46,573 nt of DNA from Oscillospiraceae bacterium (GTDB lineage: Bacteria; Bacillota; Clostridia; Oscillospirales; UBA929): the NCBI GenBank assembly GCA_031271325.1, contig JAISVY010000166.1, positions 1-46,573 of the forward strand, given 5' to 3'. This document shows, piece after piece, positions 13,530 through 29,757 of the stretch. Within the stretch, counting starts at the first letter, position 1, and each line of letters starts with the position of its first letter. The translations under genes were made by a program, and so were the position numbers. The notes under the pieces are model-generated. The model was not told the DNA's origin. It did no database searches and worked only from the letters and a program-made list of their open reading frames with translations.

Positions 13530-14381
13530 CTATACCGTTTCCAGCTTGGAAGTGTCGATCACGACACCGGAACCGATTTGGTTGATTGTGAACTTCATGC
13601 TCATGTCCATCGTAATGTCTTCTATACTTTCGGCGCTGACCGCCACCGCCATTTGGATGCCGACGGAAACCGGGTCGCCGTTTTCCGCGGTGACCACCTC
13701 GATTGTCATATCTTCCATCGTTATGTCGCCGATATCGCCAAGGAGCGCCATCTCTTCGCCCGCGGCTTCCATGATATAGCCGGTCATTTTCGTGCCGTCG
13801 ATCACGAAGGTGGTCTTTTTGCCCTCGGGTACGTCCGCCGTTTCAAACGACTTGATCGCGTCTATGCCGAATTCGGGCATGTTGACGGTACTTCCCATTT
13901 GCTGTTCGAACGCGGACGCGTCAAGCTCCGTTTCAACGCCGTCTACCGCGTAGTACATCTTCTCGCCGTCGTAGAGCATCTCGATCGTGTTTGAACCGTA
14001 GTCCGATTCGGTGTTTATCACCGAGGAAAACTTCGTTTTTCCGTCTTCCACGATCGTTTTGATGTTGCCGTTTGAATTCACGGCGATGTTTTGATCGAGC
14101 ATCGACATATTCATCCGCATGTCCATGTCCATATCAATCTGCACGTCTTCGCCGCCGGGCGCTGCGGTGATCTGGCTCATCGCGTTTGCGTAGTTCGCGT
14201 AGGCGAGAGTTTTTGTGTCTTCTTCCGGCGTCGCCGCCGTGCTTGGCGTATCCGCCGGTGTCACAGACGCCGCGTCCGGCGTACCCGGAGTATCCGGCGT
14301 AACCGCTGTGTTCTGCGCGGCACACGCCGACATCAGAAGCACCAAGCCAAGCGCCAGAACCGGCAGGGTTTTGCTTTTCAT
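13530..14381 (-). CDS. Lipoprotein of unknown function (Met/Asp-rich)
   Basis: ATG 14381 lies after GAGGGGAAG. Lipobox: MKSKTLPVLALGLVLLMSAC. A Pro/Thr linker follows. Met-rich stretches include DMDMDMRMNMSML and DITMDMSMKF. Confidence 0.75.
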   Translation of the reverse strand: MKSKTLPVLALGLVLLMSACAAQNTAVTPDTPGTPDAASVTPADTPSTAATPEEDTKTLAYANYANAMSQITAAPGGEDVQIDMDMDMRMNMSMLDQNIAVNSNGNIKTIVEDGKTKFSSVINTESDYGSNTIEMLYDGEKMYYAVDGVETELDASAFEQQMGSTVNMPEFGIDAIKSFETADVPEGKKTTFVIDGTKMTGYIMEAAGEEMALLGDIGDITMEDMTIEVVTAENGDPVSVGIQMAVAVSAESIEDITMDMSMKFTINQIGSGVVIDTSKLETV

Positions 14382-14458
14382 AACTTCCCCTCTTTCTTCC
14401 CTTTTCATCTATTATAAGCTGGGCATATTAAATTGTCAAGCGCGATGTCCTGTAGGTT

Positions 14459-14614
14459 CACGACAAACGCATGAACGGACAAAATGCACAAAAAGCGGTA
14501 TCCTCATGTAGGGGCGACCGTCTTCGGTCGCCCGCGGCTGCGGGATTTTTCGGGGTTACGGGCGGTCGGGGACGACCGCCCCTGTGCGACACGGACATTC
14601 ATGCGTTTGCCGTG
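14459..14614 (-). mobile_element. Family-2 MITE-like palindromic element, copy 3
   Basis: Same orientation and termini as copy 2 (CACGACAAACGCATGAACGG / CATTCATGCGTTTGCCGTG), with an 11-nt internal deletion relative to copy 2. It is flanked by CCTGTAGG (14449-14456 and 14615-14622). Confidence 0.85.
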
Positions 14615-14630
14615 CCTGTAGGGGTATGTT

Positions 14631-14669
14631 GAAAATTCCCCGTTTTGCGCGGTGCGCAAAACGGGGAAT
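14631..14669 (-). terminator. Rho-independent terminator ending the 10-gene transport operon
   Basis: 16-bp perfect stem ATTCCCCGTTTTGCGC (14635-14650) / GCGCAAAACGGGGAAT (14654-14669). On the minus strand it is followed by TTTTC. It lies 48 nt after the stop at 14717. Confidence 0.75.
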
Positions 14670-14716
14670 CGGGCTGCTTACCGCTGTTCCTTTTGTTACA
14701 GGCGGGAAAGCGGCGT

Positions 14717-16168
14717 TTAGTTAAATGCGTTGTTGATGTAGTCTTGGACGATGTTTTTCCATTTTTCGGTGAATTGGGTCGGGGTTTCGGAGCCGTTCAT
14801 GATGCCGCCGATGTAGAAGCCGTTGCCGTTTTCATCGGTCATAGCGAGGTCGTTCCACATGTCGTACTGCGCCTTTTCGCACATCTTTTTCGCGTATTCC
14901 CAGCCGCGGGTATCCGGGCCAAACAGGTCTTCCATCCAGGTCCAGTCATCGCGAAGCGACGTATCGCCGGCAAACCAGTTGGTGAAGTCGTAATAGACTC
15001 TGAAGACGATTTCGGGGTCGGGGGTTCCGACCGGGATCATCATGACGTTGCCGTTGAGGTTAACGGTTGCGCTCACGCCGCCCTGTGCTTCGGCGGTGGG
15101 ACCGGTCGGCCACGGTACGCTTCTGATGTCATAGGGGCAGTCTTCGGATTGGGAGACGCCGTAGTTTTGGGCAAGCCACGGGATGAAGATGAAGAACGCG
15201 AGATCGTTGTTGCTCCAGTCTCCGTTTTCCCAGAAGATTCCGCCTTCATCGCTCCACGCTTTGGCGACTTGGGAGATGTTGTACATGTCGTCAATGAAGT
15301 CAAAAACTTCTCTGGTGGGCGCGGAGGTAATTTCTTCGGTTTCGCCCAGAGCGATATGCGCGTTGTTGGAGATGAGAAGGTTTTCAAGGAAACGCACGTG
15401 ACCGCCGCTCCAGCCGTAGGTCGGGGTGCCGGTGGTCGTGTCGGTGCAAGCCTTCATGATGTCCATCCACGCCTGCCATGTCCATTCGCCCGCGTCGTAG
15501 AGATCCTGCGGGTTGGGCTGACCTTTGGCTTGCAGGATGTCATAGTTGAAGCCCAGCATATACATAGCGTTGGGGTTGATGGTGGGGGTTACGGAGAAGA
15601 TATAGTCTTTGTCCATGCCGCCGATGTTGATCGGGGTGAACACGTTTTTCGCTTCATCGTTGTTGAGGATGTCGTACGCGGGATCTGTCGCGTAGTCGGA
15701 GATGGGGATTGCGTAGCCGCTGGTGATCGGCATGATCATAAACTGCGTGTCGAGCGTGTAGATATCGACATCGGGAGTTCCCGCCTTCAGCGAGGTGTTG
15801 AGCGATTCCCTCGCGCCGTCAAAGGTCATGTTGACATAGTTGAAGGTGACGTTGTAGCGTTCCTCAATGGCGCGCATGTTGTCCAGCCGCATCTGACCTA
15901 CCATGGGATCGGCTTCGTCTTCGGGCATTTCGAGGGTGTTGGAGTCATACTCGCTGTCCCACCACTGCCCGATATAGATGTCGCGGGTGTTATTGTAGCG
16001 CAGGGAACTGCTGCTGTCGCCGCCGCTGCTGTCACCCGGATCGGTATTGCCCCCGGGTTCGTTGCTGCTATTGTCGTCGGTTGTGGCGCTGTTTCCGCCG
16101 CAAGCGGCGAGCAGTGTCAGCAGCATGAGCGCCGCGAGCGCGAGCGCAAAGATCTTTGAAAATTTCAC
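14717..16168 (-). CDS. Extracellular solute-binding lipoprotein (sugar-type ABC binding protein)
   Basis: GTG 16168 lies 7 nt after AGGAGG and gives VKFSKIFALALAALMLLTLLAAC (lipobox). A Ser/Asp/Gly linker is followed by an SBP-like body rich in W/Y/D/N. Confidence 0.8.
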   Translation of the reverse strand: MKFSKIFALALAALMLLTLLAACGGNSATTDDNSSNEPGGNTDPGDSSGGDSSSSLRYNNTRDIYIGQWWDSEYDSNTLEMPEDEADPMVGQMRLDNMRAIEERYNVTFNYVNMTFDGARESLNTSLKAGTPDVDIYTLDTQFMIMPITSGYAIPISDYATDPAYDILNNDEAKNVFTPINIGGMDKDYIFSVTPTINPNAMYMLGFNYDILQAKGQPNPQDLYDAGEWTWQAWMDIMKACTDTTTGTPTYGWSGGHVRFLENLLISNNAHIALGETEEITSAPTREVFDFIDDMYNISQVAKAWSDEGGIFWENGDWSNNDLAFFIFIPWLAQNYGVSQSEDCPYDIRSVPWPTGPTAEAQGGVSATVNLNGNVMMIPVGTPDPEIVFRVYYDFTNWFAGDTSLRDDWTWMEDLFGPDTRGWEYAKKMCEKAQYDMWNDLAMTDENGNGFYIGGIMNGSETPTQFTEKWKNIVQDYINNAFN

Positions 16169-16191
16169 TGTTTTGCCTCCTTTAACTATCA

Positions 16192-17985
16192 TTATTCCGC
16201 CGCCGCGTCGTCAGCGCTGAGGTTGAAGTTCGGTGTGTAGAGAACGACTTTAAACAGATCCATGTCTTTGTTGCGGTTTTGGATCCAGAAGGCGTTCAAA
16301 TTCGTATAGATGTCCTCTGCCGTACCGCCTTTGTCAATCCAGCCCTGTATCAGCGCTTCGGCGGAAATCATGTCGATACCGATCAGCGGGTCGCTGAATC
16401 CCAGCGGGTCGTTGATGGCGTCGCCGCCGCCGAATATCTCTTTGACCGATTTGTCTTCAGTCGCGTAACGCTGGACGCAGAACTGCGCGCCTTCTTCGGA
16501 GAGATAATACGCGATGATATACGCGCCGGGTACGAGCCATTCCGGCTCGAATTCGCCGACCGAGTCCGCTCCGGTTTCAGGAACGACGGTGGTATTCACG
16601 CGGAAGTTCAGTTGCCATGCGCCGACCGATTTGAACGGGGTATATTCGTCGGGGCTGATCGAGTTGTAAGGCGTTAGGTCGATATACCCGTCGTGTCCCG
16701 CGACATACGGTTTATAGCCCAGCTCCGCGGTGCGCTGACCGACCGAGAATTTGTTGACGGTCAGGTCTACGCCCCAGTCGCCGATATTCACGCAGTTGAC
16801 CCAGTCGAACGTTTCCGCGCCGGATGCCGCGACGATATCTTCATAGCGGTACTGCGCGATGTTTCCGGAGAGGTTTGTTGTGTACGGCGAAACCTTAACC
16901 CAGTTGTTTAACGCCGTTACGGACTCCGGAACTTCCGTGCCCTCCGCTCCCCAACTCTGGAAGATCAGCTCGGGCGCTTTTTCGCTCTTGTAGTATACGG
17001 TAAACACGGCTCCGGGCTGGATCACGCTGAGGTCGAGATCAAGCACCTTGCCCGCCTGCCCCCAGTTTGCGGAGGTTCCGGTAGCGCCGTCCTGCAGGAA
17101 GTCAATGGAAGCCTCTTCTTCGAGCGCGTAGAGCATTGTTCTGTCCGCGTCGCCGAATCCCTGCGGGGGAACGAAGGAGACGGTGGTGTCGGGTACCATC
17201 GGGTTACCCGCTTCGTCTTTGAACAGGATGTAATCAATGATTACGTTGTTAATGGGGCGGTCAACCGGCGGTTCCTCGGTGAACTCGGTGCCTTCTTCCG
17301 CCGCCAGTGCCTTTCTGTCGTTATAGGAGGTTGTGGCGGTCGTATTGGCGTCTTTGATCGCGTCGTAGGTCTTCGTGATGATCGCGATGTTTTTCTGACC
17401 CGGCTCAAAGAATTTGGTCAGCTCGGCGACGGTGGTTCTGGGGTTATTACGCTCGACGGCGACGCCCCACAGATACGCGGTTTCTGTCAGGTCCGCGCCC
17501 GTCCATGTGAGGATGTTGCCGGACATGGCGTAGAATCCGTCTCCGTTCGGGTTATCGGCGTAGATACGGGCTTCGATCGAGCGGATGTCGGCGACCTTAT
17601 CGCCAAACATGCTGGACACGTCAATGCCCAAATACGGCTGGCCGTTTTCCACCACATTGATTTTCAAGGCTTTCGCGCCATTGAAGTCAATGATCTCCAG
17701 CTCGGACGGGTCAGCGCCGCCCGGCGTCAGGTTGATGGCCATATAGCCCATGTTGCCGTCTGAGAAGTCGATGGCGCCTTCCGGCACGGGACCGATCTCG
17801 TTGACGACCGGGCTGGGATCCCACGACTGGTCACCACTCTCGGAGGGTACGGTATCCGCCGGAGTGGGGGAGTCGGCGGCTACGTCCGGCGTCGGGGAGG
17901 CGGCCTGTTCGCTGGCGCAAGCCGCAAACGCCATAAACATAAGCAAGGCAGCCAGGAGAATCGCGAAATGCTTTGTCTTCATCAT
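16192..17985 (-). CDS. 597-aa lipoprotein of unknown function, beta-rich with CBM-like segments
   Basis: Lipobox: MMKTKHFAILLAALLMFMAFAAC. A Pro/Ser/Thr linker follows. I recognised no catalytic motif. The start could also be the second ATG at 17982. Confidence 0.75.
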   Translation of the reverse strand: MMKTKHFAILLAALLMFMAFAACASEQAASPTPDVAADSPTPADTVPSESGDQSWDPSPVVNEIGPVPEGAIDFSDGNMGYMAINLTPGGADPSELEIIDFNGAKALKINVVENGQPYLGIDVSSMFGDKVADIRSIEARIYADNPNGDGFYAMSGNILTWTGADLTETAYLWGVAVERNNPRTTVAELTKFFEPGQKNIAIITKTYDAIKDANTTATTSYNDRKALAAEEGTEFTEEPPVDRPINNVIIDYILFKDEAGNPMVPDTTVSFVPPQGFGDADRTMLYALEEEASIDFLQDGATGTSANWGQAGKVLDLDLSVIQPGAVFTVYYKSEKAPELIFQSWGAEGTEVPESVTALNNWVKVSPYTTNLSGNIAQYRYEDIVAASGAETFDWVNCVNIGDWGVDLTVNKFSVGQRTAELGYKPYVAGHDGYIDLTPYNSISPDEYTPFKSVGAWQLNFRVNTTVVPETGADSVGEFEPEWLVPGAYIIAYYLSEEGAQFCVQRYATEDKSVKEIFGGGDAINDPLGFSDPLIGIDMISAEALIQGWIDKGGTAEDIYTNLNAFWIQNRNKDMDLFKVVLYTPNFNLSADDAAAE

Positions 17986-18030
17986 TTTCCCTCTTTCATA
18001 GAAATTGATTTGGCGCGCTGAAGAGAATTG

Positions 18031-19023
18031 CTATCCTACAATGCCTGAACGCTCCACCCCCTCGATAAACCGTCGTTGCAGAAATACATAGATGATGACC
18101 ATCGGTAAGATCATCAGCACTATACCTGCGTAGACATACAGTTGCTGTATATTCGGATCGACCACGCGGTCGCGGTTCGCGATGGTCGCGCCCAGCGTAT
18201 TCAGGCGCTTGCTCAGTACGATGTTGTCGCTTACGTTAAACGCGTTGGCGTAGAACAGATCGTTGTATTGCCACACCAAAGAGAACAGCGTTACCGTGAT
18301 GATCGAAGGAATGGCGTTGGGAATCATCACGCGCAAAAAGGTGAAGAACGTGCCGCCGCCGTCTACGAACGACGCTTCCTCGATTTCCTTCGGCAGCCCG
18401 CGGAAGAACTGATTGAAGATGTAGATATACAGACCGGAGCGCAAACCGGTACCGAAGATCGACAGCAGGTACAGCGGCACCGGTGTGGACAGCAGGTTCA
18501 CCTTTTCCCCGCCGAACAGGCTGAACAGCCACAGCGGGTCGAAATTGCGGAAGGTCATATACAGCGGCAGCATGATGGTGTGCGCCGGAAGAACGATCAT
18601 GACAATCACGCAGCCGAACAGCAGCCTCTTAAACGGGAAGTTGAAACGGGCGAACCCGTAGCCGACCATTGAGCAGATCGCGAGCTGGACAACCGTCAAA
18701 GAAACCACATAGAGCAGGTTGTTGCCCATGACGCGGAAATAATCCAGCCGCGTAATCGCCAGCTGATAACGCTCCAGCGTCGGCGTTTGCGGGATGAGGT
18801 AGACAAGCGGGCTGTACTGGTCTTCGTTGGAGAAGAACGAACTGACCACGATTCCGATCAGAGGCGAAATGATGACGTAGGCGATACCCACAATCAGTAT
18901 AAGCCGGAAAATAGACATGATGAACTTCTTGGTGGAGCGGACGATTCTGTTTCTTTCGTTGTGGAGTTGGGTGTCGCTCTTGGCTTTGACCCACAGGGAT
19001 CTCCCTTTATGGATGATATTCAA
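18031..19023 (-). CDS. Carbohydrate ABC transporter permease (MalG/LplC-like)
   Basis: EAA-loop motif EASFVDGGGTFFTFLRVMIPNAIPS and about 6 TM segments. TTG 19023 lies 8 nt after AAGGGGGG. Confidence 0.85.
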   Translation of the reverse strand: MNIIHKGRSLWVKAKSDTQLHNERNRIVRSTKKFIMSIFRLILIVGIAYVIISPLIGIVVSSFFSNEDQYSPLVYLIPQTPTLERYQLAITRLDYFRVMGNNLLYVVSLTVVQLAICSMVGYGFARFNFPFKRLLFGCVIVMIVLPAHTIMLPLYMTFRNFDPLWLFSLFGGEKVNLLSTPVPLYLLSIFGTGLRSGLYIYIFNQFFRGLPKEIEEASFVDGGGTFFTFLRVMIPNAIPSIITVTLFSLVWQYNDLFYANAFNVSDNIVLSKRLNTLGATIANRDRVVDPNIQQLYVYAGIVLMILPMVIIYVFLQRRFIEGVERSGIVG

Positions 19024-19037
19024 TGGTTCCGCCCCCC

Positions 19038-19970
19038 TTAATTCTGATAGAATGTGCGCTTAGAGACCCACAAACCGGCAATCAGCAGGATGCCGCAGAC
19101 AGAGAGCATGCTCACGAGGCTAAATACGGAGCCGAGCGAGTAGTTGTTGTCGTTGAATGTGGTTCGGTACGCCAAATCCAGCACCTGGCTGGTAATGAAC
19201 GAGTCTACGACCGTATAAACCATGTTCGTCACCAAAAGCGGCGACACCATCGGGAAGGTTACCTTCCAGAACGTCTCGTAGGGCGTCGCGCCTTCAATCT
19301 TCGCCACCTCGTAGAGCGAGGGAGAAATCGACTGCAGCGCCGCGAGGAAGATGATGATCTGCACCCCCGAGGAGGTGACAATCGTGCTGATCCGGCTGAC
19401 CGCTCCGGCGATGTAGTCCAGAATGGTCTGCGGGATCGCGTCTCCCAGCAGTCCTAAGTAGAAGTCTATGTTAAACCCGCCGCTTCCGCCGACCGCGTCC
19501 ATCACGACGGTGGAAACCGGACTGTTGCCTCCGATGATGGTACCCTGCGCGGTCGAGAGCGCCGTCGCGATTGAGGGCGAGTTCAGCAGCACCGGCAGGA
19601 AGAAGATTGCGCGCGCGACCGTTCTGCCTTTGAACTTTTGATTCAGCATCAACGCCATAAACAGCGAGAAGAAGAGAATCAGCGGCACGTCGATGATCAT
19701 GTTGCCGAGCGACTGCGTCAGGATCTGCCGGAAACTCGGATGCACGGAAAACGCTTCGTTGAAATACCTAAGCCCGGCAAAACCGGTAAACTGAAATCCT
19801 GTTTCCGTGTCGATTGAATTGCTGAGCGCGAAGCGAACGGTCATGCCGATGCTGAAAACATAGAAGATTATAAACCCGATCACAAACGGCGATATAAACA
19901 TCAGACCGCTGATCGAACGCCTTTGCACCAGCGTCAGTCCGCGCCGCTTCATTTTAACGGTGGTAGTCAT
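19038..19970 (-). CDS. Sugar ABC transporter permease (MalF/LplB-like)
   Basis: EAA-loop motif EVAKIEGATPYETFWKVTFPMVSPL and 6 TM segments. ATG 19970 overlaps the upstream stop (ATGA). Confidence 0.85.
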   Translation of the reverse strand: MTTTVKMKRRGLTLVQRRSISGLMFISPFVIGFIIFYVFSIGMTVRFALSNSIDTETGFQFTGFAGLRYFNEAFSVHPSFRQILTQSLGNMIIDVPLILFFSLFMALMLNQKFKGRTVARAIFFLPVLLNSPSIATALSTAQGTIIGGNSPVSTVVMDAVGGSGGFNIDFYLGLLGDAIPQTILDYIAGAVSRISTIVTSSGVQIIIFLAALQSISPSLYEVAKIEGATPYETFWKVTFPMVSPLLVTNMVYTVVDSFITSQVLDLAYRTTFNDNNYSLGSVFSLVSMLSVCGILLIAGLWVSKRTFYQN

Positions 19971-22555
19971 GCCGCGACCCCCTCTCTCACGGCATATCCT
20001 CTCGCGGGAACGGTTATGCCTTCATATGTCAGATCGCTGACGGTTCTGTTGACGATGATCTGCACGCCGTTGTCATAGGTGACGCACCGTAAGCCGTCCG
20101 GCGTAACCTCATGGGTTACCATCAGGCTGCCGCTGACCTTGGAGAGGACGGGATTGACCGTGTTGTAGAGGTTCACCGCCGTGTCTGTCCAGTTTTGATA
20201 GTAGGTGCTGTTGAAACGGTTCAGACCGGTGTACTTCATCTCGCTGGCTTCCTCATAGGTCAGGGTGAAGTGCGGCGAGGCTCCGTATTCCAGAAGCTGG
20301 AGTATGATACCGTCTTGGTCGTTGATGTCGCTTCGGTTGACGGCGTACCCGGCGTACGGGATGTATCCGTGCACCACCATTTGGTAGAAGGGAACCTCTT
20401 CATCGACGATGTAGCTTTCGTTGTGCGCGAGGGGGACGTTGATGATGTCGTCCGCGCCTTTGAACGCGTAAACGTTGCCGCCGGATACCATGATGTCTTT
20501 TCCTATGCCGTTGAGTCTCTCAAGCTGCGCTTCCACGATAGAGAGGGCGGATTCCCGGTCGATAAATTCGGTGCGCTTCCGGTCGGAGGTGAGCGTGTTG
20601 CCCAGATCCCGGAGCGAAACGCCGGTGATGTCATACCGCTCGATGTTTTTCACGAATGAGTCGATATAGCGCGGTAAAAACTTGGGAGACATCAGGTCGT
20701 ATACCGTTTCGACATACCCGAACGACCACGCGGCCTCATAGGAGAGCGGGTCAACCTGCCCCCACACGCCGACATAGCCGCCGCCGTAATACCGCGACGA
20801 TTCCTGCTGCCAATTGTAGTCTTTGCTGCGGAACCGCACTTCTTGGAAAACCACGTCGGCGTAGAGCTTGCCGCCCTGCGCTTCCAGCCGCGACGACAGT
20901 TCCTCCAGCTCGGCTTCGCTTCCGAGCTGCTTGATAAGCTTGATTTTGTGGGTAACGTCGTGATAATAACCCCTGTTGTGCCAGCCCTGATAATTGATGA
21001 CCTGATTTTGGATGCCCGCGTCGTTGAACAGACTGACGATCTCGCCGGCCTGCTCATAGGTCGTCATCGGGAGCATCCCCTCGTAGGGAACCGCCGCGAT
21101 GAACTTCGTGCCCATCGCCGCGCCGATCAGGTCGAGGTATAACGGCACGTCGCCGCCGCTTTCCTTTTCGGCAAGGACGCCTTCGCTCTCCAACTTCTCG
21201 CGATAGTAACGCGCCATACCGGAGTAGCCGTCGTATTCCTCGGTCAGGAACTTATAACGCACCGTGAGGTTTGCTTTGTATATGTTTTTCTCCACCATCG
21301 GCAAGTCTGCTTCCAGCCCGGTTGTGCCGAACATCGCGAGCGAAGCGCTGCCGCGTACGATGAAGATGGGGTAAACGGTATTGTAGCTGTTGGCCTTTCC
21401 GGCGATCCCGGCCGTCACCTGCGCGAACGACTGACCTTCTTCGATCACGGCAAAGACGCGCGAGTTTTGCTTTTGGATGCCGAACACCGGGAAACGCGCC
21501 ATTTCGGTGTTGCCAAAAACCATGTAGTCGTCGGACAGCATATCCTGTTCGTAGACATCCTGCCGGTAATCCTCCGCGCCGGTCTTGCCGTTGTTGAAGC
21601 GGATTAACGACCCCGCGCCGTTGGGCACCAGCATATACCCTTCTTCTTCACTGCCGCCCGCGTTGAAGTTGCGGAGCATATGGATTTTATCGACCATCGC
21701 GCCGCCGTTTTCCGTGATTTGGTCTGTCGGCACCTGAACGTCCAGCGTGTCGCCGTCCAGACGGTATTCCAGCGATACGCCGAAACTGACCGGCAGAGTG
21801 CCCTCGACCCCGGCTTCCGACATCATGACTTGCAGCTCTTCATCGGTGTAACCCGCCGCTGTCAGCGCTTCGGTCAGTCTGCGGATATTCGCCGCGCCGC
21901 GGGCGCCTTCGCGCAGCTCCAGGAACCCGTCCGGCGCCGCGGGTGATTCGATATAACGCGCTTCAAAGTTTGCGCGTTCTCTCTCGTCGGGGATTCTCGG
22001 CAATATCTCCGCCATCCGCTCCACGCCGAGGTAAATCGGAACCAGCCCCGTGGGAAGCGTCAGGTCGCCGATGCTGTAGTTGACGCGAACGCCGTTTTGG
22101 ATGCTCTCGTTGGTAAACTGTCCGCCCGCGATCGCGTATCTATAGGAGTTATAGGAACCGGGCGTACGCCTCGCCGTGAAGAAGTCTACCGTGATCGGAG
22201 ACTTGAGCAGTTCGTTGTTCAGTCCGGTCGCGAGCGGGTCGTCGTCGGGATTGGGCGGACAGACATAGGCGATCTCCCCGCTGCGTTTGTCGTAGACCGC
22301 CGCGTTGGTCGTCTCGGGGTTGAAGTACAGCTCTAAGAATTCGTTTTCGGCCGCGAGCACCATATCCGGCACGTTGCCGCCGGCACCCAGCTCTTTGAAC
22401 GGGGTGCCCTCTTCAAAGTTGCCGCCGCGCTCCTGGATATATTGCTTGTAGCCGTCGTACATCCGGAAATGCAGGTGCAGATAGAGCTGATACCCGCCGA
22501 AGATCAGTACGGCGGCACCCAGGAGAATCAGAAGCAGTTTTTTACCCAGTCTCAT
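19967..22555 (-). CDS. 862-aa N-terminally membrane-anchored extracytoplasmic protein of unknown function (resembles what databases label DUF5696; unverified)
   Basis: ATG 22555 lies after GGGGGGAG. There is a single N-terminal TM segment, KKLLLILLGAAVLIFGGYQLYL. I recognised no known catalytic motif. The C-terminal half alternates strand-like and helix-like segments (VINYQGWHNRGYYHD, LYADVVFQEV, ITGVSLRDLG, FYQMVVHGYIPY). Confidence 0.8.
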   Translation of the reverse strand: MRLGKKLLLILLGAAVLIFGGYQLYLHLHFRMYDGYKQYIQERGGNFEEGTPFKELGAGGNVPDMVLAAENEFLELYFNPETTNAAVYDKRSGEIAYVCPPNPDDDPLATGLNNELLKSPITVDFFTARRTPGSYNSYRYAIAGGQFTNESIQNGVRVNYSIGDLTLPTGLVPIYLGVERMAEILPRIPDERERANFEARYIESPAAPDGFLELREGARGAANIRRLTEALTAAGYTDEELQVMMSEAGVEGTLPVSFGVSLEYRLDGDTLDVQVPTDQITENGGAMVDKIHMLRNFNAGGSEEEGYMLVPNGAGSLIRFNNGKTGAEDYRQDVYEQDMLSDDYMVFGNTEMARFPVFGIQKQNSRVFAVIEEGQSFAQVTAGIAGKANSYNTVYPIFIVRGSASLAMFGTTGLEADLPMVEKNIYKANLTVRYKFLTEEYDGYSGMARYYREKLESEGVLAEKESGGDVPLYLDLIGAAMGTKFIAAVPYEGMLPMTTYEQAGEIVSLFNDAGIQNQVINYQGWHNRGYYHDVTHKIKLIKQLGSEAELEELSSRLEAQGGKLYADVVFQEVRFRSKDYNWQQESSRYYGGGYVGVWGQVDPLSYEAAWSFGYVETVYDLMSPKFLPRYIDSFVKNIERYDITGVSLRDLGNTLTSDRKRTEFIDRESALSIVEAQLERLNGIGKDIMVSGGNVYAFKGADDIINVPLAHNESYIVDEEVPFYQMVVHGYIPYAGYAVNRSDINDQDGIILQLLEYGASPHFTLTYEEASEMKYTGLNRFNSTYYQNWTDTAVNLYNTVNPVLSKVSGSLMVTHEVTPDGLRCVTYDNGVQIIVNRTVSDLTYEGITVPARGYAVREGVAA

Positions 22556-22566
22556 GATTCTCCCCC

Positions 22567-23199
22567 CTACGATCGGAGCGTCAGCTCTGAATATATGCCG
22601 CGGAACATTCCGGTCACTTGGTTCAGCATATCAAAGAGCAGAACCGCGAGGAAAATAACAATCAGCATGGCGACAATCGTAATGATCAGAGTAACGATGG
22701 TCTTCAGCATCGTGTAGTTGTGGATCGTCATGATGCCGAGCAGAATCAGGATCCCCGACCAGGCGAAGCCGAAACCGAGGATGATGTTGTAGAAGATCTC
22801 CTCGTTTTCGCCCAGCACGTTGGAGACGATAATCGCGGGGATATAGGTGATGATCAGCGGCATCAGCGCATATCCGGCGACGGTGAGAATATCTTTGAAA
22901 CGCCCTTCGCCTTCGCTCAGGCAGGTGACCGACCAGTTGCCGATGCTGAACAGCACGAACAGCAGCAAGATTCTTGTCAGGTCGTCGATTCCGTTGACGG
23001 TGCGCGGGTCGGTCAGGTTGACGATGAACCCCGCGAAGATGCGGTTCATGGTGAAGCAGATGCTGAACACCAGAAGGGTGATCAGGGCGAGGGGAACGCT
23101 GCCCTTCTCACGGTGGCGGATCTCGTAGAAGCTGTCGATCGGGTTGGTCAGCACGCGCCGGTAGTAGTAAAAGATTTCTTTGTTGAAAAACTTACTCAT
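22567..23199 (-). CDS. YIP1-family integral membrane protein
   Basis: 210 aa. The N-terminus MSKFFNKEIFYYYRRVLTNPIDSFYEIRHREKGSVPLALITLLV is followed by about 5 TM segments, the typical bacterial Yip1-domain layout. ATG 23199 overlaps the upstream gene by 8 nt. Confidence 0.75.
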   Translation of the reverse strand: MSKFFNKEIFYYYRRVLTNPIDSFYEIRHREKGSVPLALITLLVFSICFTMNRIFAGFIVNLTDPRTVNGIDDLTRILLLFVLFSIGNWSVTCLSEGEGRFKDILTVAGYALMPLIITYIPAIIVSNVLGENEEIFYNIILGFGFAWSGILILLGIMTIHNYTMLKTIVTLIITIVAMLIVIFLAVLLFDMLNQVTGMFRGIYSELTLRS

Positions 23200-24667
23200 C
23201 GGAAACCATATCCCCCTTCCCGGCACCTCTGCGCCGGATTAAGCGCCATATATACAGTGCCACCAGCAGAATCGCGAAACCCGTCAGGATGTTGCCGAGG
23301 TTCTCTTTGAGGATGTCGTTCCGGTAGCGCTTGAACGCGATGGAGTAGTAGGTGCGGTTCATGCCGAGCTTCAGGTGCCGCATCGCCTCTTTGTTGTTGC
23401 CCTCGGTGAGGTAGGCTTTCCCGATGCCGACGTTGGCCAGTTCGAGGTTTTCGTTGAGTTTCAGCACCTCGCGCCATTTTTCGACCGCCTGTTTTTCGTC
23501 GCCGTCATAGCGCAGCCCGACCGCTTCGTTGATCAGTCGGCCGTAATCGGTCTCCTTAAACGCCATAACTTCCTGCCGGTCGGTGTCGAGAACCAAGATT
23601 CTGTCTCCGATGTAAGCGATCGAGGACGGCTGGCGGAATGTTCCCTCTTGTGTGCCAAGCCCTCCGAAGATATAGAGCAGGTTTCCCTCGTCGTCATAGG
23701 TGAATATGCGCCCGCGCCGTCTGTCCAGCATCGAGTAGATGCCCTTGTCGCGCACGACGATGTCTACGATGTAGGAGGGACCGCCGTAATCCAGCGTATT
23801 CGGCGCCGGGTAGGTATCGCCGCCGAGGTTGCCGTTTTCGCCCTTTTGGATGACGTCCTCACCTTTGGGGTTGAGCCGGAACGCTGCCTGCGTGCCGTTC
23901 GGATCAATGCAGGAGGCGTAGATGAACCCTTCTTTGTCCACAGAAACGCCCGTGAACTCGGTCGGGATGAAGAGCGTCGAGCCGCTTAACTGTTCCTGAG
24001 AGGAGAACAGCCGCCAAAACCGCTGCCACAGGGAGACGGTTACCGGGATTGTGCCGTAGAACCCGGTGAAGTCGCCCGTCTCGTTGAATACCATGATGCC
24101 TTGGAACATACTCTGCCCGATGACGTATACGCGGTCGGCGTAATCGACGCCCAGTTCCAAGGGGATAAAGACATAATCGTCCGCGAGCATTTCGGATACC
24201 GGGTTTTGGATGATCCTGACCAGCTCGCCCTCTTCCAGCACCACGATGCGGTGATTATCGGAGTCGGCTATGTAGAGCTGCCCTTTTTCGGATACCGTAA
24301 CGCCCCACGGTTTGTTGAACGTGTCGTCGAACGCCGCCCCGTCTTCCCCGGTGTTTGCAAAGCCTGTGATGACCTCGGCCTCGGTCATCTCCGGGTTCAT
24401 AACGACGATGCGGTTGTTGCCCGTATCGGCCACGTAGACCCTGCCGTCCGGTCCGACGCAAATGCCCCGGGGCAGACTGAACGCCCCGACACCCAGATTC
24501 ACGCCGGAGACGTTGCCGTCCGGGATATACGGCGAAGGCGTGAACTCGAGGTATTGGCGGTAGTTGAAGATGTACGAATCGTACGGCACATCGACGGCGG
24601 CGAAGACGGGAAGCGTACAGAACGCCGCCAGCGCGAGCACCAAGGGTAAAATCCGCTTCAAAATCAT
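23192..24667 (-). CDS. Secreted six-blade NHL-repeat beta-propeller protein with TPR-like segment and C-terminal TM anchor
   Basis: ATG 24667 lies after AAGGGGGG. Signal peptide: MILKRILPLVLALAAFCTLPVFA. NHL-type blades: GRVYVADTGNNRIVVMN, GQLYIADSDNHRIVVLE, DRVYVIGQSMFQGIMVFN, GFIYASCIDPNG, GIYSMLDRRRGRIFTYD, DRILVLDTDRQEVMAFK. Tail: KAYLTEGNNKEAMRHLKLG, then the TM segment ILTGFAILLVALYIWRLI. The 705-aa ORF-track version is an upstream read-through into the permease gene. Confidence 0.85.
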   Translation of the reverse strand: MILKRILPLVLALAAFCTLPVFAAVDVPYDSYIFNYRQYLEFTPSPYIPDGNVSGVNLGVGAFSLPRGICVGPDGRVYVADTGNNRIVVMNPEMTEAEVITGFANTGEDGAAFDDTFNKPWGVTVSEKGQLYIADSDNHRIVVLEEGELVRIIQNPVSEMLADDYVFIPLELGVDYADRVYVIGQSMFQGIMVFNETGDFTGFYGTIPVTVSLWQRFWRLFSSQEQLSGSTLFIPTEFTGVSVDKEGFIYASCIDPNGTQAAFRLNPKGEDVIQKGENGNLGGDTYPAPNTLDYGGPSYIVDIVVRDKGIYSMLDRRRGRIFTYDDEGNLLYIFGGLGTQEGTFRQPSSIAYIGDRILVLDTDRQEVMAFKETDYGRLINEAVGLRYDGDEKQAVEKWREVLKLNENLELANVGIGKAYLTEGNNKEAMRHLKLGMNRTYYSIAFKRYRNDILKENLGNILTGFAILLVALYIWRLIRRRGAGKGDMVSDE

Positions 24668-24675
24668 AACCCCCC

Positions 24676-25587
24676 TTAGTCTTTCATGCCGGAGGTGGTC
24701 ATCGTCTCTAAGATGCTGGACTGGCATATGAGGAAGAAGGTGATCGGAATAGCCGCCAGCACCAACGCGACGGCGGCGGAAGCGCCGGCGCGGGCGGCGC
24801 CGCCCGCCGTGATCTGCTGCATGGCGTATTGCAGCGGCTTCAGTTCTTCGTTGCGCAGGAACAGATAGCCGGTGTTGCTCCACATCGTCTGGAACTGGAA
24901 GATCGCGAGCGTGAGCCACGCGGGTTTGACGTTCGGCATGATGATCTTCCAAAATACGCGGATTTCGCCCGCGCCGTCCATCCGGGCGGACTCGATCAGC
25001 GAATCGGGGATCTGCTCCATAAACTGCTTCATCAGGTACAGCCCCAGCCCGTAGCCCCACGCGGGCAGGATCAGCGCCCAGTAGGTATTGTTGATGTGCA
25101 GGTAGCTGACGATGACATAGTTCGGAATCATCGTGACCTGATAGGTAAACATGATCGAGAAGATAACCAGCGTAAACAGCAGTTTTTTGCCGGGGAATTT
25201 GTGCTTTGCCAGCGGATACGCCGCGAACGACGCCACGATCACGTGCCCGACGGTGCCGCACCCGGTGATGATCACCGTGTTGAAGATATAGCGCGAGAAA
25301 GGCACCCATGAGTCGCTCATCAGGATAAACAGGTCGGAGAAGTTCTCAAAGGTGGGGTTGCGCACAAATATCGCGGGGGGGAACTGGAAGATTTCGTCCA
25401 GCGGTTTTAAGGAGTTGTTGATGATCATCACCAGCGGCATGACCATAAATACGCCGCACAGCCCCATAAAGAGGAACAGCATCACGTTGCCCGCCCGCGA
25501 ACGGTTGAGCTTGCGCTTGCGGCGGAATAGGCGTTCACGCAGCGTCTCCTTCTCGGAGAAGACCGGTCTGGCTTTACTCTTAACCAT
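24676..25587 (-). CDS. Carbohydrate ABC transporter permease (MalG-like)
   Basis: EAA-loop motif ESARMDGAGEIRVFWKIIMPNVKPA and 6 TM segments. Confidence 0.9.
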   Translation of the reverse strand: MVKSKARPVFSEKETLRERLFRRKRKLNRSRAGNVMLFLFMGLCGVFMVMPLVMIINNSLKPLDEIFQFPPAIFVRNPTFENFSDLFILMSDSWVPFSRYIFNTVIITGCGTVGHVIVASFAAYPLAKHKFPGKKLLFTLVIFSIMFTYQVTMIPNYVIVSYLHINNTYWALILPAWGYGLGLYLMKQFMEQIPDSLIESARMDGAGEIRVFWKIIMPNVKPAWLTLAIFQFQTMWSNTGYLFLRNEELKPLQYAMQQITAGGAARAGASAAVALVLAAIPITFFLICQSSILETMTTSGMKD

Positions 25588-25591
25588 CTGA

Positions 25592-26509
25592 CTACTCGCC
25601 CACCCTTCTCAGGAACCGCTGCACGAGCCTGTTGGTTCCCACCATCATGATAAACAGCACGGTGGCAATCGCCGACGCGTACCCCATCTCAAAACGCACG
25701 CCGCCGTAGTCGGAAAGGTGCGTGACGATTGTCGCTCCGGCATACCCGACCGAGGGGTTGCCGGCCAGCTGCAATGAGATGTCCGCCACGGCGAACGCCC
25801 CGGTAATCTGCATGACAGCGCCGAACATCAGCTGAGGGCGCATCGCGGGGAGGGTTACGAACCAAAGCTCCTGCCAGCGGTTCTTAATGCCGTCGATCGC
25901 GGCCGCCTCGTAGAGCGACTTGTCGATTGTTTGCAGACCCGCGATGAACGCGAGGAAGCCTGTGCCGAGGCTCAGCCAGAGCTGTACGACGATCAGCACC
26001 GGCATGATGTACTGCGCCGTCCGCATCCAGAGGATCGGTTCCTGTATGAAGTCGTATTGCAGCAAGAAGCCGTTCAGGTAACCGTAACGGTCGCCGGTGA
26101 GGATGATGTTCCAGATCAGGTACGCCTGCCCCGATATGGACGGCGCGTAGAAGATCAGCGTGAGGAAGGCGCGCAGCTTGCCTTTGAATTCGTTGATAAT
26201 CCACGCGAACAGCAGGCAGAGGATATAGCTGATCGGCCCGGTGATGACGGCGAAGATCAGCGTGTTTTTCAGCGCGAGGACAAAGATGTCGTCTTCCAGC
26301 AGCAGTTTGAGGTAGTTTGACCACCCGATCCACTGCGGGGCTTCCAGCATGTTAAAATAGGTCAGGGAGATGAACATCGACGCGATGACCGGCAAGATCG
26401 TAAAGAGCGTGAAGAGCAGGAAATACGGCGCAATCATAATATAGGAGATGCGGTTTTTGGCCATCAGCGTCCCGACAAAGGGCTTTTGAAGGTCTTTCTG
26501 CTTCGTCAA
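25592..26509 (-). CDS. Sugar ABC transporter permease (MalF-like)
   Basis: EAA-loop motif EAAAIDGIKNRWQELWFVTLPAMRP and 6 TM segments. TTG 26509 lies 8 nt after AGGGGG and 1 nt after the upstream stop. Confidence 0.85.
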   Translation of the reverse strand: MTKQKDLQKPFVGTLMAKNRISYIMIAPYFLLFTLFTILPVIASMFISLTYFNMLEAPQWIGWSNYLKLLLEDDIFVLALKNTLIFAVITGPISYILCLLFAWIINEFKGKLRAFLTLIFYAPSISGQAYLIWNIILTGDRYGYLNGFLLQYDFIQEPILWMRTAQYIMPVLIVVQLWLSLGTGFLAFIAGLQTIDKSLYEAAAIDGIKNRWQELWFVTLPAMRPQLMFGAVMQITGAFAVADISLQLAGNPSVGYAGATIVTHLSDYGGVRFEMGYASAIATVLFIMMVGTNRLVQRFLRRVGE

Positions 26510-26510
26510 G

Positions 26511-29492
26511 TTATTCGCCCCCTATCCCGTCTTCGTAAAGAGTCAACCCGAACTCTTCCCGTTTGAAGTCGATTTCGTCGTTGATCAGGATGACTTTGTC
26601 GGTCAGCGCCTCGCGCGGGAACTCAAAGACCGTTTCAGCCGACCCGATCACCGAGCTGCCGGTGACGACCGCGTAAAACGCGTTGTTGACGTTGCGGTAG
26701 CTGAAGTAGCCGCCCGGCACCTGCGGGATGCCCTTGACCGAATCGAATTGCCTGTTCAGCGCCTGATAGTCGGCAACCGGCCACGGCAGCTGCGCGAACG
26801 CTTCGATGTTGGCCGACGGGTGGCGCGCCGCCGCGCCCATCAGGCTTTCCATCTCGCGCCCGAACAGCGTCTGCGTTTCGGCGTCTGTCCACCATTTGAT
26901 GAATTCCCAGGAATTTTCGGGGGTATTGTCGGATTTCATGATGATACAGCCCGAACCGAAGCTGCCGACCGAACGGTCGAGGGAGCCGTCTTCCTGAACC
27001 GTCGCGGGCACGGGCGCAAAGCCCCACAGACCCTTGATGTCGGGAGCCGAAACTTGGAGCGTGTTATAGAAGGAGAAGTCGTTGATGATCAGCGGCGTCT
27101 CGCCGGTGCGGAAGCGTTCCTCGACGCTGGTGTCTTTGTCGAGTTTGTAGTCGGTGTAGAACTCGGTATACTTTTTGAAGGCGTTGATGGCCTGATCGCT
27201 GTCGAGCGCGGAGCGGGTGGCGTCTTCGTTATAGTACTCCCCGCCGTTTTGGTAGAGAATCATCGAGAAGATCTGCTCGGTCGGCAGCATTCCCAGCTCC
27301 ATCATGTTGTTGGCGAGCACGGCCAGCGTGGTTTTCATTTCGTCCCACGTGTTGGGGACTTCGAGGTTCAGCTCTTTCATGATGTCCTTGCGGTAGAACA
27401 TCATCGGGAAGGTCTGGGTTTCCGGCAGGGCGTAAACCGCGCCGTCGTAGGTGAACGCCTCCATTACGCTCGGACGGAACCGCGTCAGCACCTCGTCCAA
27501 GTCTTCAAACTGCGTAAGATCCTGCACGGCGTTGCGCAGCCCGTAGTTCATGGGGAGGTCGTTCGCGACCTGTATCGCGACGTCCGGTCCCTGCCCCGCA
27601 AGCGTCGCCTGCAAAAGCGTGCCCATATCGACCAGCATCGCGTTGACGCCGATGCCGGTTTCGCGGGTGAACGTTTCGTCGATCAGGTTTTTGATGACGT
27701 TGGCCTGGTCGCGCCCCGAGCCGATCCAGAGGGTGACCGATTCCGTGTCTTCTTCCTCGGAGATGTTGCCGATTTGGTTGTAGTCGATCACGAACGAATA
27801 GAAGAGGCGGGAGATTTCGTACCAAATGCCGGCAAAGATGTTGTCGTTCGGCGCGCTCATGTTCTTGCCGGGCGCGTGGAAGGTGATCGTATCCACCCGC
27901 AGGGGTTGATCGATGGCCTGCGTGAGCCACGTGCCGCAGGCGCGGATGTTGATGCGGAACGAGGCGACCGTTTTGGAGAATCTTTCCTGGTTTTCGATCA
28001 GCTCGTTGAGCTGGATGATCATCGTTTTCAGGACGCGCTCACGGTCGCTGCGCTTGCCCGCGATTCTCTGAAGCTCGTCGATCGACCATTGCAGGCTGTC
28101 CCGCACGGCGACCAGTTCGCCTTTGAGTTCGGGCAGACTGTACGCCACCTGATAGTCGCGGTTCCGGTCAGGCCTCACGCCGGTCAGGCGGATGACTTTC
28201 CGGTAGATACGGTTCAGCTCGAACACCGCTTCGCGCACCACGCTGATGATCTCGGAGAAACTGCCGAGCACCGCTTCCATACGGACGGTGTGCCGTCCCG
28301 CTTCCAAGAAAATCTTGTAGGGGTCGCCTTCTTTTTGCGTGAGCTTTTCCATCGTCCAGTTCTGGCGGTAGATAAAACCGTATTCCGAAAACTCCGCGAA
28401 CGGCACTTTGCCGTCGATGTAGATTTTGCGCGACACGTAAATACCGCGCGAAAAATTCTGCAGCACATGGGCGGATATTTCGTACAGACCGCTCTCCGGC
28501 GCGTCGAATTCCCATTCGATCCAGTGACCCGCAATCCGCCACGACTGCCCGCCGATTGTGTTGTTCAGCAGCAGTTTCGCGCTGGAGGGGCTGACTGTGG
28601 GCGAGGACTGGTCTTGGTCGGGATAGAGCATCTGAGAGGAGGTCTTGACCGCGTTCTGCCCCTGAACCGTTACGAGCGCTTCGGACGACACGTCTTTGGC
28701 TCCGGCGGCTTCCCACCCGGCCAGCACTTCGGCGTAGGAGAGGAGCGGCTCGGTGTTTTGAAACGTGAACTTACGGAGCAGCATCGGTTCGCGCATCGAC
28801 ATGAGGGTCAGCACGTGCTCGCCCTCGGTGAGGTACAGCGAGAGGTTGTCGGTGATGTATCCGTCGCTGTCATAGAGCAGAGATTCCGTCCACTCGGGGA
28901 TCTCGATCATCTTGGGCTTGAGGTCGTTGCCCTGGTTGTCCTTCGGCCAGACCGGCGCGCTCTGTCCGGCTTCCCGGGCTTCTTCGGCGACCGTGTTTGT
29001 CCACTGCCGCTCGAACTCCACCGTAGACAGCTCGCGGAAGGGCAGAACGCCGTCCAGGAATAACGAGCGCTGAATCTCGGAGCTTTTGCCCTCCACCGGG
29101 AAGTAGAGCAGAGAGAGGTCGTACAGCCCCGCCTCCGGAACGGTGAACGTGTACTCAATGACCGCGTCTTCCTCGGTCAGTACGCTGTCGCCTGTTTGCC
29201 CCTCGTAATCGGCGTAGATTTCCGGCTCCGCTTCCGCGCCGCCTTCTTCGTACCGCGCGTAACCCGCCGCGTCGATTTCGATCACGCCGGACGGCCGGTT
29301 TTGCGGCTGCCGGTCTATGTAATCGCGGTAGGTGGGGATGGATTCGTCGACGGAGTAACCCTCTAAGATGTCCTCGTACTCCAGGCGCGTCTTTTCCCCC
29401 GCCGTATAACCATACGCGAGTGACGACGACCCCAGCAGGACGAACGCTGTGAAAACAGCCAGCGTTTGTAACACGCGCCGTTTCCGAGTCAT
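26511..29492 (-). CDS. 993-aa extracellular protein: signal/anchor, two CBM6/35-like modules, a helical segment and a C-terminal ABC solute-binding domain
   Basis: ATG 29492 lies after AAGAGGGGG. The N-terminal hydrophobic segment LQTLAVFTAFVLLGSSSLAYG has no lipobox Cys. Duplicated modules lie at about aa 70-245 and 275-415. The SBP-like part begins near aa 585 (TLWIGSGRDQANVIKNLIDETF...GPDVAIQV...). Confidence 0.85.
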   Translation of the reverse strand: MTRKRRVLQTLAVFTAFVLLGSSSLAYGYTAGEKTRLEYEDILEGYSVDESIPTYRDYIDRQPQNRPSGVIEIDAAGYARYEEGGAEAEPEIYADYEGQTGDSVLTEEDAVIEYTFTVPEAGLYDLSLLYFPVEGKSSEIQRSLFLDGVLPFRELSTVEFERQWTNTVAEEAREAGQSAPVWPKDNQGNDLKPKMIEIPEWTESLLYDSDGYITDNLSLYLTEGEHVLTLMSMREPMLLRKFTFQNTEPLLSYAEVLAGWEAAGAKDVSSEALVTVQGQNAVKTSSQMLYPDQDQSSPTVSPSSAKLLLNNTIGGQSWRIAGHWIEWEFDAPESGLYEISAHVLQNFSRGIYVSRKIYIDGKVPFAEFSEYGFIYRQNWTMEKLTQKEGDPYKIFLEAGRHTVRMEAVLGSFSEIISVVREAVFELNRIYRKVIRLTGVRPDRNRDYQVAYSLPELKGELVAVRDSLQWSIDELQRIAGKRSDRERVLKTMIIQLNELIENQERFSKTVASFRINIRACGTWLTQAIDQPLRVDTITFHAPGKNMSAPNDNIFAGIWYEISRLFYSFVIDYNQIGNISEEEDTESVTLWIGSGRDQANVIKNLIDETFTRETGIGVNAMLVDMGTLLQATLAGQGPDVAIQVANDLPMNYGLRNAVQDLTQFEDLDEVLTRFRPSVMEAFTYDGAVYALPETQTFPMMFYRKDIMKELNLEVPNTWDEMKTTLAVLANNMMELGMLPTEQIFSMILYQNGGEYYNEDATRSALDSDQAINAFKKYTEFYTDYKLDKDTSVEERFRTGETPLIINDFSFYNTLQVSAPDIKGLWGFAPVPATVQEDGSLDRSVGSFGSGCIIMKSDNTPENSWEFIKWWTDAETQTLFGREMESLMGAAARHPSANIEAFAQLPWPVADYQALNRQFDSVKGIPQVPGGYFSYRNVNNAFYAVVTGSSVIGSAETVFEFPREALTDKVILINDEIDFKREEFGLTLYEDGIGGE

Positions 29493-29578: not shown

Positions 29579-29607
29579 ATTTTAATATATTTTTAACAAA
29601 AAGTCAA
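29579..29607 (-). promoter_or_regulatory. Sigma-A-type promoter of the 10-gene transport operon
   Basis: Minus strand: TTGACT (29607-29602), 17 nt, TAAAAT (29584-29579), in a locally AT-rich stretch. The leader is about 80 nt, with a small hairpin CCGCTTCGTAGCGG. Confidence 0.6.
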
Positions 29608-29709: not shown

Positions 29710-29757
29710 CACGGCGGCACCGCGAAGCGGGGATTTATACAGGGAGGTATGTTCAAA

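Follow-up and report, generated by a model that had tools for sequence, protein, structure and literature searches.

In the SusCD utilisome of Bacteroidota, the transporter is joined in one complex with glycan-binding proteins and a glycosidase of the cell surface, and shared MsmX-type ATPases are usual for CUT1-type ATP-binding cassette (ABC) transporters. In Bacillus, assembly of the ABC transporter YknXYZ is reported to be modulated by YknW, a Yip1-family protein (PMC4887032), and in the GH129-like enzyme DagB a beta-sandwich at the N-terminus precedes a TIM barrel and an Ig-like domain at the C-terminus (PMC5698469). To these systems we compare a locus in a 46,573-nt stretch of DNA from an Oscillospiraceae bacterium (contig JAISVY010000166.1 of assembly GCA_031271325.1; hereafter, the window), whose core is a tightly packed trio of genes for an NHL propeller protein, a Yip1-family membrane protein and an 862-aa protein of Pfam family DUF5696. 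Of 127 informative loci, 126 have the NHL and Yip1 genes immediately upstream of DUF5696, and all 144 loci informative for the other side have a permease pair immediately downstream; the predicted fold of the DUF5696 protein is that of GH129/GH101-type glycosidases. On balance, we favour a reading in which the trio forms the core of a cell-surface glycan processing and import station, with NHL–Yip1 as its membrane scaffold.

A ten-gene operon with tightly packed junctions

The trio lies within a run of ten genes spanning 14.8 kb (29492..14717, minus strand), in which every junction in the open reading frame (ORF) list is at most 45 nt. All operon coordinates refer to the minus strand of the window; the features are as follows.

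26511..29492, minus strand: solute-binding protein, 993 aa (Pfam SBP_bac_8 and SBP_bac_1)
25592..26509, minus strand: ABC importer permease, first of pair A, 305 aa (orthologues 75–93% identical at the same position in related genome loci; counterparts in Butyrivibrio and Paenibacillus records named sugar ABC transporter permease)
24676..25587, minus strand: ABC importer permease, second of pair A, 303 aa (conserved position; counterparts named carbohydrate ABC transporter permease)
23192..24667, minus strand: NHL protein, 491 aa (Pfam NHL), with predicted signal peptide, propeller, TPR-like stalk and C-terminal membrane helix
22567..23199, minus strand: Yip1-family polytopic membrane protein, 210 aa (Pfam Yip1)
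19967..22555, minus strand: DUF5696 protein, 862 aa (Pfam PF18952), a putative extracellular GH129/GH101-like glycosidase
19038..19970, minus strand: ABC importer permease, first of pair B, 310 aa (Pfam BPD_transp_1)
18031..19023, minus strand: ABC importer permease, second of pair B, 330 aa (Pfam BPD_transp_1; conserved position)
16192..17985, minus strand: lipoprotein with a CBM65-like carbohydrate-binding module, 597 aa (Pfam CBM65_1, 72 bits; lipobox FAAC)
14717..16192, minus strand: lipoprotein solute-binding protein, 491 aa, last gene of the operon (Pfam SBP_bac_1; lipobox LAAC)
29579..29607, minus strand: promoter-like site TTGACT-17-TAAAAT, about 90 nt 5′ of the first operon gene (consensus scan with 10/12 matches; a pattern match only)

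The two permeases of pair A (305 and 303 aa) were assigned from their orthologues and the annotation of their counterparts.

A previous reading of this DNA, made from the letters alone (the sequence-only reading), had described an 8-nt NHL/YIP1 overlap, an 11-nt gap with a ribosome-binding site before the 862-aa gene and an ATGA junction after it; each is present at the position it gave, and the same junctions are tight in relatives. The NHL gene ends in GAT GAG TAA (TAA at 23194-23192) and the YIP1 ATG occupies 23199-23197, giving the 8-nt overlap ATGAGTAA. The YIP1 stop, TAG at 22569-22567, is followed by 11 nt, GGGGGAGAATC, and then by the ATG of the 862-aa gene at 22555, whose G-run ribosome-binding site, GGGGGGAG, starts with the final base of that stop. 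The 862-aa gene ends in GCA TGA, the ATG of this ATGA (19970-19967) being the start of the next permease, and 8 nt (TAAGGGGGGTTATG) separate the stop of the upstream permease from the NHL start. The NHL protein of the NCBI record has 489 aa, implying a start two codons downstream; for YIP1, an alternative GTG at 23226 would yield a protein of 219 aa, and relatives favour the overlapping ATG.

The cassette is conserved across Clostridia and Bacilli

To describe conservation, a genome scan with a DUF5696 alignment, taking one genome per species, was combined with a metagenome scan seeded with a divergent DUF5696 subfamily, in which neighbouring genes were scored by profiles of the cassette proteins. 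The genome scan returned 442 relatives, and among the best 80 of these (80 species, 45–73% identity), which were examined, the ten-gene order was retained in every sufficiently long locus. The NHL and Yip1 genes, split in all genome loci, lay directly 5′ of DUF5696 in 66/66 of them and the permease pair directly 3′ in 77/77. The corresponding values were 58/59 (39 fused, 19 split) and 65/65 for metagenome loci of the divergent subfamily, and 2/2 (one fused, one split) and 2/2 for plasmids. The conserved cassette reaches down to 25% DUF5696 identity and includes plasmid-borne copies in Butyrivibrio fibrisolvens (31% identity, beside a GH43 gene and a two-component system) and Paenibacillus cellulosilyticus (25% identity, beside a gene for a UgpC-type ATPase). 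Its carriers include, from the gut, Lachnospiraceae, Oscillospiraceae, Roseburia, Butyrivibrio and Acetatifactor and, from soil, Paenibacillus; candidate culturable carriers are Butyrivibrio fibrisolvens D1 (plasmid pNP243), Paenibacillus cellulosilyticus KACC 14175 and Anaerotaenia torta.

Furthermore, the close packing of the genes is shared among species. Among 67 loci from other species, the NHL–YIP1 junction overlaps in 56 and measures at most 20 nt in 65, the DUF5696–permease junction overlaps in 54/76, and the median gap between YIP1 and DUF5696 is 13 nt; translational coupling is thus conserved across species. A second importer, with a binding protein of about 1000 aa and its own permease pair, is nearly always found near the core, placed before NHL or after the second permease pair. 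The invariant unit is therefore NHL–Yip1, DUF5696 and the permease pair, almost always accompanied by the second importer. With respect to the sequence-only reading, which had treated the trio as the whole unit and had named homologues that usually lie apart as a refuting observation, the opposite was found, and the unit it had drawn was too narrow: the downstream permease pair belongs to it as well, and nearly always so does a second importer.

Two loci depart from the common pattern in other ways. The only informative locus in which no Yip1 gene was detectable (L128:8683-12394) has a 417-aa NHL ORF overlapping a 978-aa DUF5696 ORF by about 470 nt, an arrangement for which a frameshift, a deletion or another kind of fusion could account. 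In the Paenibacillus cellulosilyticus plasmid (L082:15880-25103), four luciferase-like (LLM) flavin-dependent oxidoreductases come after the cassette, along with an NADPH-dependent oxidoreductase and additional binding proteins, in place of glycoside hydrolases; such neighbours are unusual for a sugar importer.

NHL and Yip1 form one functional unit

The NHL protein matches Pfam NHL at 89.4 bits, and its AlphaFold model (pLDDT 84.5) comprises an N-terminal signal helix, strands consistent with a six-bladed propeller at residues 30–372, a helical TPR-like stretch at 374–434 and a long C-terminal membrane helix at 438–482, in keeping with the Sec signal, C-terminal transmembrane segment and six blades that had been read from the sequence. 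Foldseek placed it closest to the NHL domains of TRIM71, Thin and Brat (E=2e-19; TRIM71 TM 0.80), with the sensor domain of PknD also among its neighbours; these neighbours further show that NHL propellers include enzymes, such as virginiamycin B lyase. The NCBI name gluconolactonase was rejected for this protein: its match to Pfam SGL, 24.1 bits, stays below the cut-off of 26.3 and covers part of the protein only, and its structural neighbours are generic, the best of them being non-enzymatic NHL domains.

The Yip1 protein matches PF04893 at 66.7 bits (cut-off 28.6) over residues 15–184 of 210. NHL and Yip1 occur as a single polypeptide in 40 distant loci, comprising a 719-aa Paenibacillus protein identified by Pfam and 39 metagenome loci, and because of these fusions in many relatives we regard NHL–Yip1 as one functional unit. 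The predicted topology fits an end-to-end fusion, in which propeller and stalk would lie outside, the C-terminal helix would lead inward and Yip1 would begin from the cytoplasm. By analogy with YknW, this unit probably organises the transporters and the enzyme.

DUF5696 has a predicted glycosidase fold and a conserved polar pocket

The 862-aa protein matches Pfam DUF5696 (PF18952) at 629.4 bits (cut-off 25.6; E=9e-189) over residues 240–854, and belongs to a family that comprised 5,937 clusters at 50% identity in a profile search. In its AlphaFold model (pLDDT 87.6, pTM 0.85), a single membrane helix at residues 3–31, which agrees with the one N-terminal transmembrane segment previously noted, precedes a beta-rich N-terminal region; strands and helices then alternate at about 470–760 as a (beta/alpha)8 barrel, followed by a C-terminal beta-sandwich. 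The three-domain build of GH129 enzymes (beta-sandwich, barrel, beta-sandwich) is thus present in the model. Foldseek searches of the PDB returned GH129-like DagB (5opq, E=3e-32, TM 0.70) and GH129 NagBb (5wzn, E=7e-25, TM about 0.72), with target-normalised TM scores of 0.70–0.73 for GH129 as a whole, ahead of GH101 (about 1e-16), GH36 (about 1e-13) and GH31 (about 1e-11), for which TM scores were lower (0.29–0.58). The TIM-barrel glycosidase-like fold that the sequence-only reading had suspected in the C-terminal half is therefore borne out by AlphaFold and Foldseek as a barrel of GH129/GH101/GH36 type, and not the purely structural repeat that it had named as the contrary outcome.

A weak relationship to GH129 is also present in sequence. 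A profile of 44 DUF5696 homologues matched NagBb (5wzn) at E=0.0016 over about 150 residues only, and the Pfam DUF5696 model matched NagBb residues 218–380 at 8.9e-13, above its gathering score; the Pfam GH101 model also matches the GH129 fragments that the DUF5696 model matches. A single-sequence search of the PDB with the 862-aa protein gave no match, and a profile of the C-terminal 300 residues of DUF5696 gave spurious phycocyanin matches only. DUF5696 should not be filed as a member of GH129.

Residue conservation was counted over 142 DUF5696 representatives with 25–48% identity to the window protein. N740 is conserved in 100%, R667 in 99%, E756 in 96%, W525 and D718 in 95% each, D338 in 94%, D658 in 93%, N694 in 91% and H729 in 82%, and the family has a conserved polar pocket containing three or four carboxylates. 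In a GH129 fragment, the motif YLDVF is followed 43 residues on by SSEE, a spacing equal to that from Asp435 to Glu478 in NagBb, and then by VPLYNLVYH; colinear with these in DUF5696 are SLRD650, GGN694 (44 residues later) and VPFYQMVVH729. By this manual motif alignment, made against frameshifted NagBb search fragments (hhalign against the best GH129 fragment gave 1.8% probability, and a family-wide HMM aligned the VPFY motif only), Asp650 is the likely counterpart at or next to the GH129 nucleophile position (NagBb Asp435, DagB Asp486). We take the putative hydrolase activity of DUF5696 to be likely. In a separate region, a quadruple mutant of NagBb has LALAGW where the wild type has LHLDGW; in the alignment, the mutated His and Asp lie opposite N521 and Q523 of the window protein, so that their role in NagBb, possibly metal binding, is probably not shared by DUF5696.

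Two sugar-type importers bracket the trio

The operon carries two sugar-binding proteins and two permease pairs, the combination of a sugar-binding protein with two BPD_transp_1 permeases that marks a CUT1-type importer being recognised for pair B by Pfam. The 993-aa binding protein, which is conserved beside the module in relatives, has a CUT1-type sugar-binding domain at residues 582–883, and its relatives in the PDB are oligosaccharide-binding proteins such as Lin1841 (9e-18) and maltodextrin-binding proteins. Its N-terminal region of about 570 aa, for which homologues give weak GH115_C, Golvesin_C and CBM35 matches, may contain carbohydrate-binding-like beta-sandwich domains. This protein begins with a signal or anchor sequence that lacks a lipobox cysteine, and the other extracellular proteins of the operon are lipoproteins; retention by the NHL–Yip1 unit is one possible way in which it could stay at the surface.

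The 491-aa binding protein is conserved downstream of pair B in relatives and is most likely the binding protein of that pair. The CBM65-like lipoprotein is found in most close relatives, not in distant ones, and is an accessory part of this orthologous subgroup only. PDB sequence searches gave no matches for either of these two proteins. No ATPase gene of the kind that a CUT1 importer with a dedicated ATPase would carry was found in the operon (14717-29492) by ORFs and Pfam; in Paenibacillus, the UgpC-type gene mentioned above adjoins the cassette.

Relatives of the cassette lie in glycan-catabolic loci

Loci of the orthologous subgroup are flanked by genes for a GH26+CBM35 lipoprotein, GH5 and GH130 enzymes, an epimerase, GDSL and CE4 esterases, a DUF624 protein and a LacI regulator. 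From these flanking genes, the substrate in this subgroup is probably a beta-mannan-type hemicellulose. Mannan-type flank genes were absent from the window and from its closest relative (L001) within the available DNA, and the neighbours of the window operon are housekeeping genes, with a penicillin-binding protein gene further away. An extension of the beta-mannan link to the whole DUF5696 family was considered and rejected, as distant loci carry other enzyme sets: the divergent subfamily is flanked by GH10, GH27/36, GH130, GH42, GH1, GH78, GH26, GH29, GH127 and GH3 enzymes, an apiosidase-like enzyme, and LacI and AraC regulators. The cassette is accordingly a general device in catabolic loci for many glycans. 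The function of the trio, which the sequence-only reading had called unknown, is no longer wholly so, given this carbohydrate-catabolic context.

Genes and sequence features bordering the operon

Just past the last operon gene lies a gene for a 292-aa lipoprotein (13530-14408, minus strand) with an Asp/Met-rich stretch, DMDMDMRMNMSM; the protein fell into no Pfam family, and related loci lack a homologue. A perfect TTGACA-17-TATAAT promoter stands in front of the gene at 14439-14411, and the gene is probably a separate transcription unit; because of this promoter, the operon most likely ends at 14717. On the opposite strand, just beyond the operon, a 616-aa lipoprotein (11483-13333, plus strand; lipobox FAGC) reads like a large LplA/YtcQ-type sugar-binding protein, with no Pfam match at E<=1e-3 and no permease genes of its own nearby. 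The G+C content is 54–58% in window positions 12000-30000 and 60–66% in the flanking housekeeping genes; together with the large plasmids of Butyrivibrio fibrisolvens and Paenibacillus cellulosilyticus that carry the cassette, the low value in the operon hints at horizontal transfer.

Discussion

In the reading that we favour, the long binding protein, with its CBM-like domains, and the lipoprotein binding proteins would capture glycan fragments at the outer face of the membrane, with the CBM-bearing lipoprotein sharing in this capture. The DUF5696 ectodomain, anchored by its one N-terminal helix and predicted to have the GH129/GH101-type fold of retaining glycosidases, would trim or cleave the fragments, and the two CUT1-type importers bracketing the trio would take up the products, powered by an MsmX/UgpC-like ATPase encoded elsewhere. 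NHL–Yip1 would most likely serve as a membrane scaffold or assembly factor that keeps enzyme and importers together; we infer the physical binding of DUF5696 and the permeases to it from their adjacency and translational coupling. In other subgroups, the same cassette would serve other glycans. A bolder form of this proposal is a cytoplasmic-membrane supercomplex, in which NHL–Yip1 bridges the two importers and an enzyme that founds a new GH129/GH101-related family with different catalytic residues, so that capture, cleavage and uptake are coupled; this we regard as possible though doubtful.

Several observations weigh against the favoured reading. In the loci examined, DUF5696 was never seen fused to NHL, Yip1 or a permease, and adjacency is what speaks for its membership of a complex; the stoichiometric membrane complex that the sequence-only reading had proposed for all three proteins gains real support for the NHL–Yip1 pair, by virtue of the fusions, and for DUF5696 is a suggestion from gene order. 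No regulator, ATPase or other glycoside hydrolase adjoins the operon in the window, a cassette that is uniform in loci for many glycans fits poorly with an enzyme of one narrow specificity, and literature searches found no biochemical or genetic work on any cassette member. The lack of DUF5696 fusions would also be expected of an ordinary polysaccharide operon of co-expressed, independent parts, with a free-standing DUF5696 glycosidase, importers working alone and no supercomplex, in which NHL–Yip1 does a separate job such as sensing or lactone/ester cleavage. The second importer occurs now on one side of the core and now on the other, an arrangement that a rigid complex has no need of; this agrees with such independence, as do the gluconolactonase name with its weak SGL similarity and the existence of enzymes among NHL propellers. 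Near-absolute adjacency in fixed order over very large sequence distances is, however, stronger than is usual for accessory genes, the junctions overlap in most species, and both the SGL score under its cut-off and the non-enzymatic character of the best structural neighbours speak against an enzymatic propeller; we consider independent parts rather unlikely.

The points against catalysis by DUF5696 belong to the same account. The window protein gave no match to PF11308, the Pfam Glyco_hydro_129 catalytic-region model, even at E<=10, and the conserved acidic catalytic pair that was to be sought in an alignment of homologues was not found at the positions used by GH129: the acid/base position (NagBb Glu478) appears to be occupied by Gly693/Asn694, and Asp650 was rejected as a universal nucleophile, the Asp being kept in 61% of representatives only (86/142). 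Together with the many glycan specificities of the loci that one cassette serves, this would suit a non-catalytic DUF5696, acting as an anchored glycan-binding or hand-off protein that presents oligosaccharides through its old active-site pocket. D658, D718 and E756, along with D338, R667, N694, N740, H729 and W525, nevertheless form an active-site-like pattern of conservation (82–100%). In the GH36 enzyme AgaA, we take D478 to be the nucleophile and D548 the acid/base, and the spacing of 60–68 from D650/D658 to D718 resembles the 70 between those residues (numbering from PDB titles). Loss of the NagBb acid/base, moreover, does not in itself mean loss of activity, because this residue is not conserved in DagB, which is active using other carboxylates (PMC5698469). 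A non-catalytic role is, in our judgement, improbable. Still further from the evidence is a role in the cell's own envelope, by remodelling, recycling or export of a surface glycan instead of use of nutrient glycans. All parts face the outer side of the membrane, and the housekeeping neighbours, the distant penicillin-binding protein and the absence of an adjoining regulator or glycoside hydrolase in the window could be taken in its favour; the transporters, though, are binding-protein-dependent importers of sugar type, and the flanks of relatives encode enzymes that break down plant and host glycans, alongside LacI, AraC and two-component regulators, making this alternative very improbable.

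All parts of the cassette are of known kinds; its conserved assembly, the NHL–Yip1 unit and the DUF5696 enzyme are without literature that we could find. Our full-text searches returned no paper on DUF5696 or on Yip1 in combination with NHL repeats, ABC transporters and glycoside hydrolases, and no relevant paper on NHL with mannan or on GHL1/GH101/GH129. The carriers belong to groups that matter as degraders of dietary fibre and plant biomass. An active DUF5696 would be a candidate for a new glycoside hydrolase family or a GH129 subfamily; if NHL–Yip1 organises the importers, the cassette would show how surface glycan processing is coupled to uptake in Gram-positive bacteria and would give a function to bacterial Yip1 proteins. 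A supercomplex, if it exists, would give Gram-positive bacteria an equivalent of the utilisome of Bacteroidota and Yip1 its first defined role in bacterial nutrient import. In any case, such loci can be annotated simply by their strict gene order, which serves as a genomic marker.

Relation to described systems

The closest described relatives of the enzyme are NagBb, the GH129 alpha-N-acetylgalactosaminidase of Bifidobacterium bifidum (5wzn), and DagB, the GH129-like 3,6-anhydro-D-galactosidase of Zobellia galactanivorans (5opq), both of which have the three-domain build in common with DUF5696. Sequence homology with GH129 is weak but real over the first half of the barrel, including the common motif VP[FL]Y..V.H, and identity is only 10–12%. 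Unlike GH129, DUF5696 carries a membrane anchor at its N-terminus, where it is also longer by about 200 residues, and every locus examined is an NHL–Yip1 and ABC importer cassette. GH101 (EngBF, SpGH101) and GH36/GH31 enzymes have a barrel-plus-sandwich fold as in DUF5696 (Foldseek E=1e-16 to 1e-11), but no sequence match to them was detectable from the window protein and their catalytic motifs are not recognisable in it.

YknWXYZ resembles the cassette in that a Yip1-family protein is encoded with an ABC transporter. YknYZ, however, is a MacB-type exporter that works with a membrane-fusion protein in protection from a toxic peptide, whereas the cassette transporters are sugar importers, Yip1 is coupled or fused to an NHL propeller and no membrane-fusion protein was found by Pfam. 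Gram-positive beta-mannan loci of gut Firmicutes share with the cassette their sugar-type binding proteins, permease pairs and an ATPase encoded elsewhere, and the GH26, GH5, GH130, epimerase, esterase and LacI genes flanking its relatives match Gram-positive polysaccharide utilisation loci. Measured against such loci, the window holds transporters and the putative hydrolase DUF5696 only; its relatives add GH26, GH5, GH130, GH43 or GH10 enzymes and LacI, AraC or two-component regulators. The cassette differs from these loci in its two importers bracketing NHL, Yip1 and DUF5696, in its binding protein of about 1000 aa and in recurring unchanged across glycans. The SusCD utilisome is made of unrelated proteins around an outer-membrane TonB-dependent transporter, in contrast to the cytoplasmic-membrane ABC importers of the cassette; the logic of the cassette, as known from genes and models, is possibly analogous, with capture, cleavage and import brought together at the cell surface.

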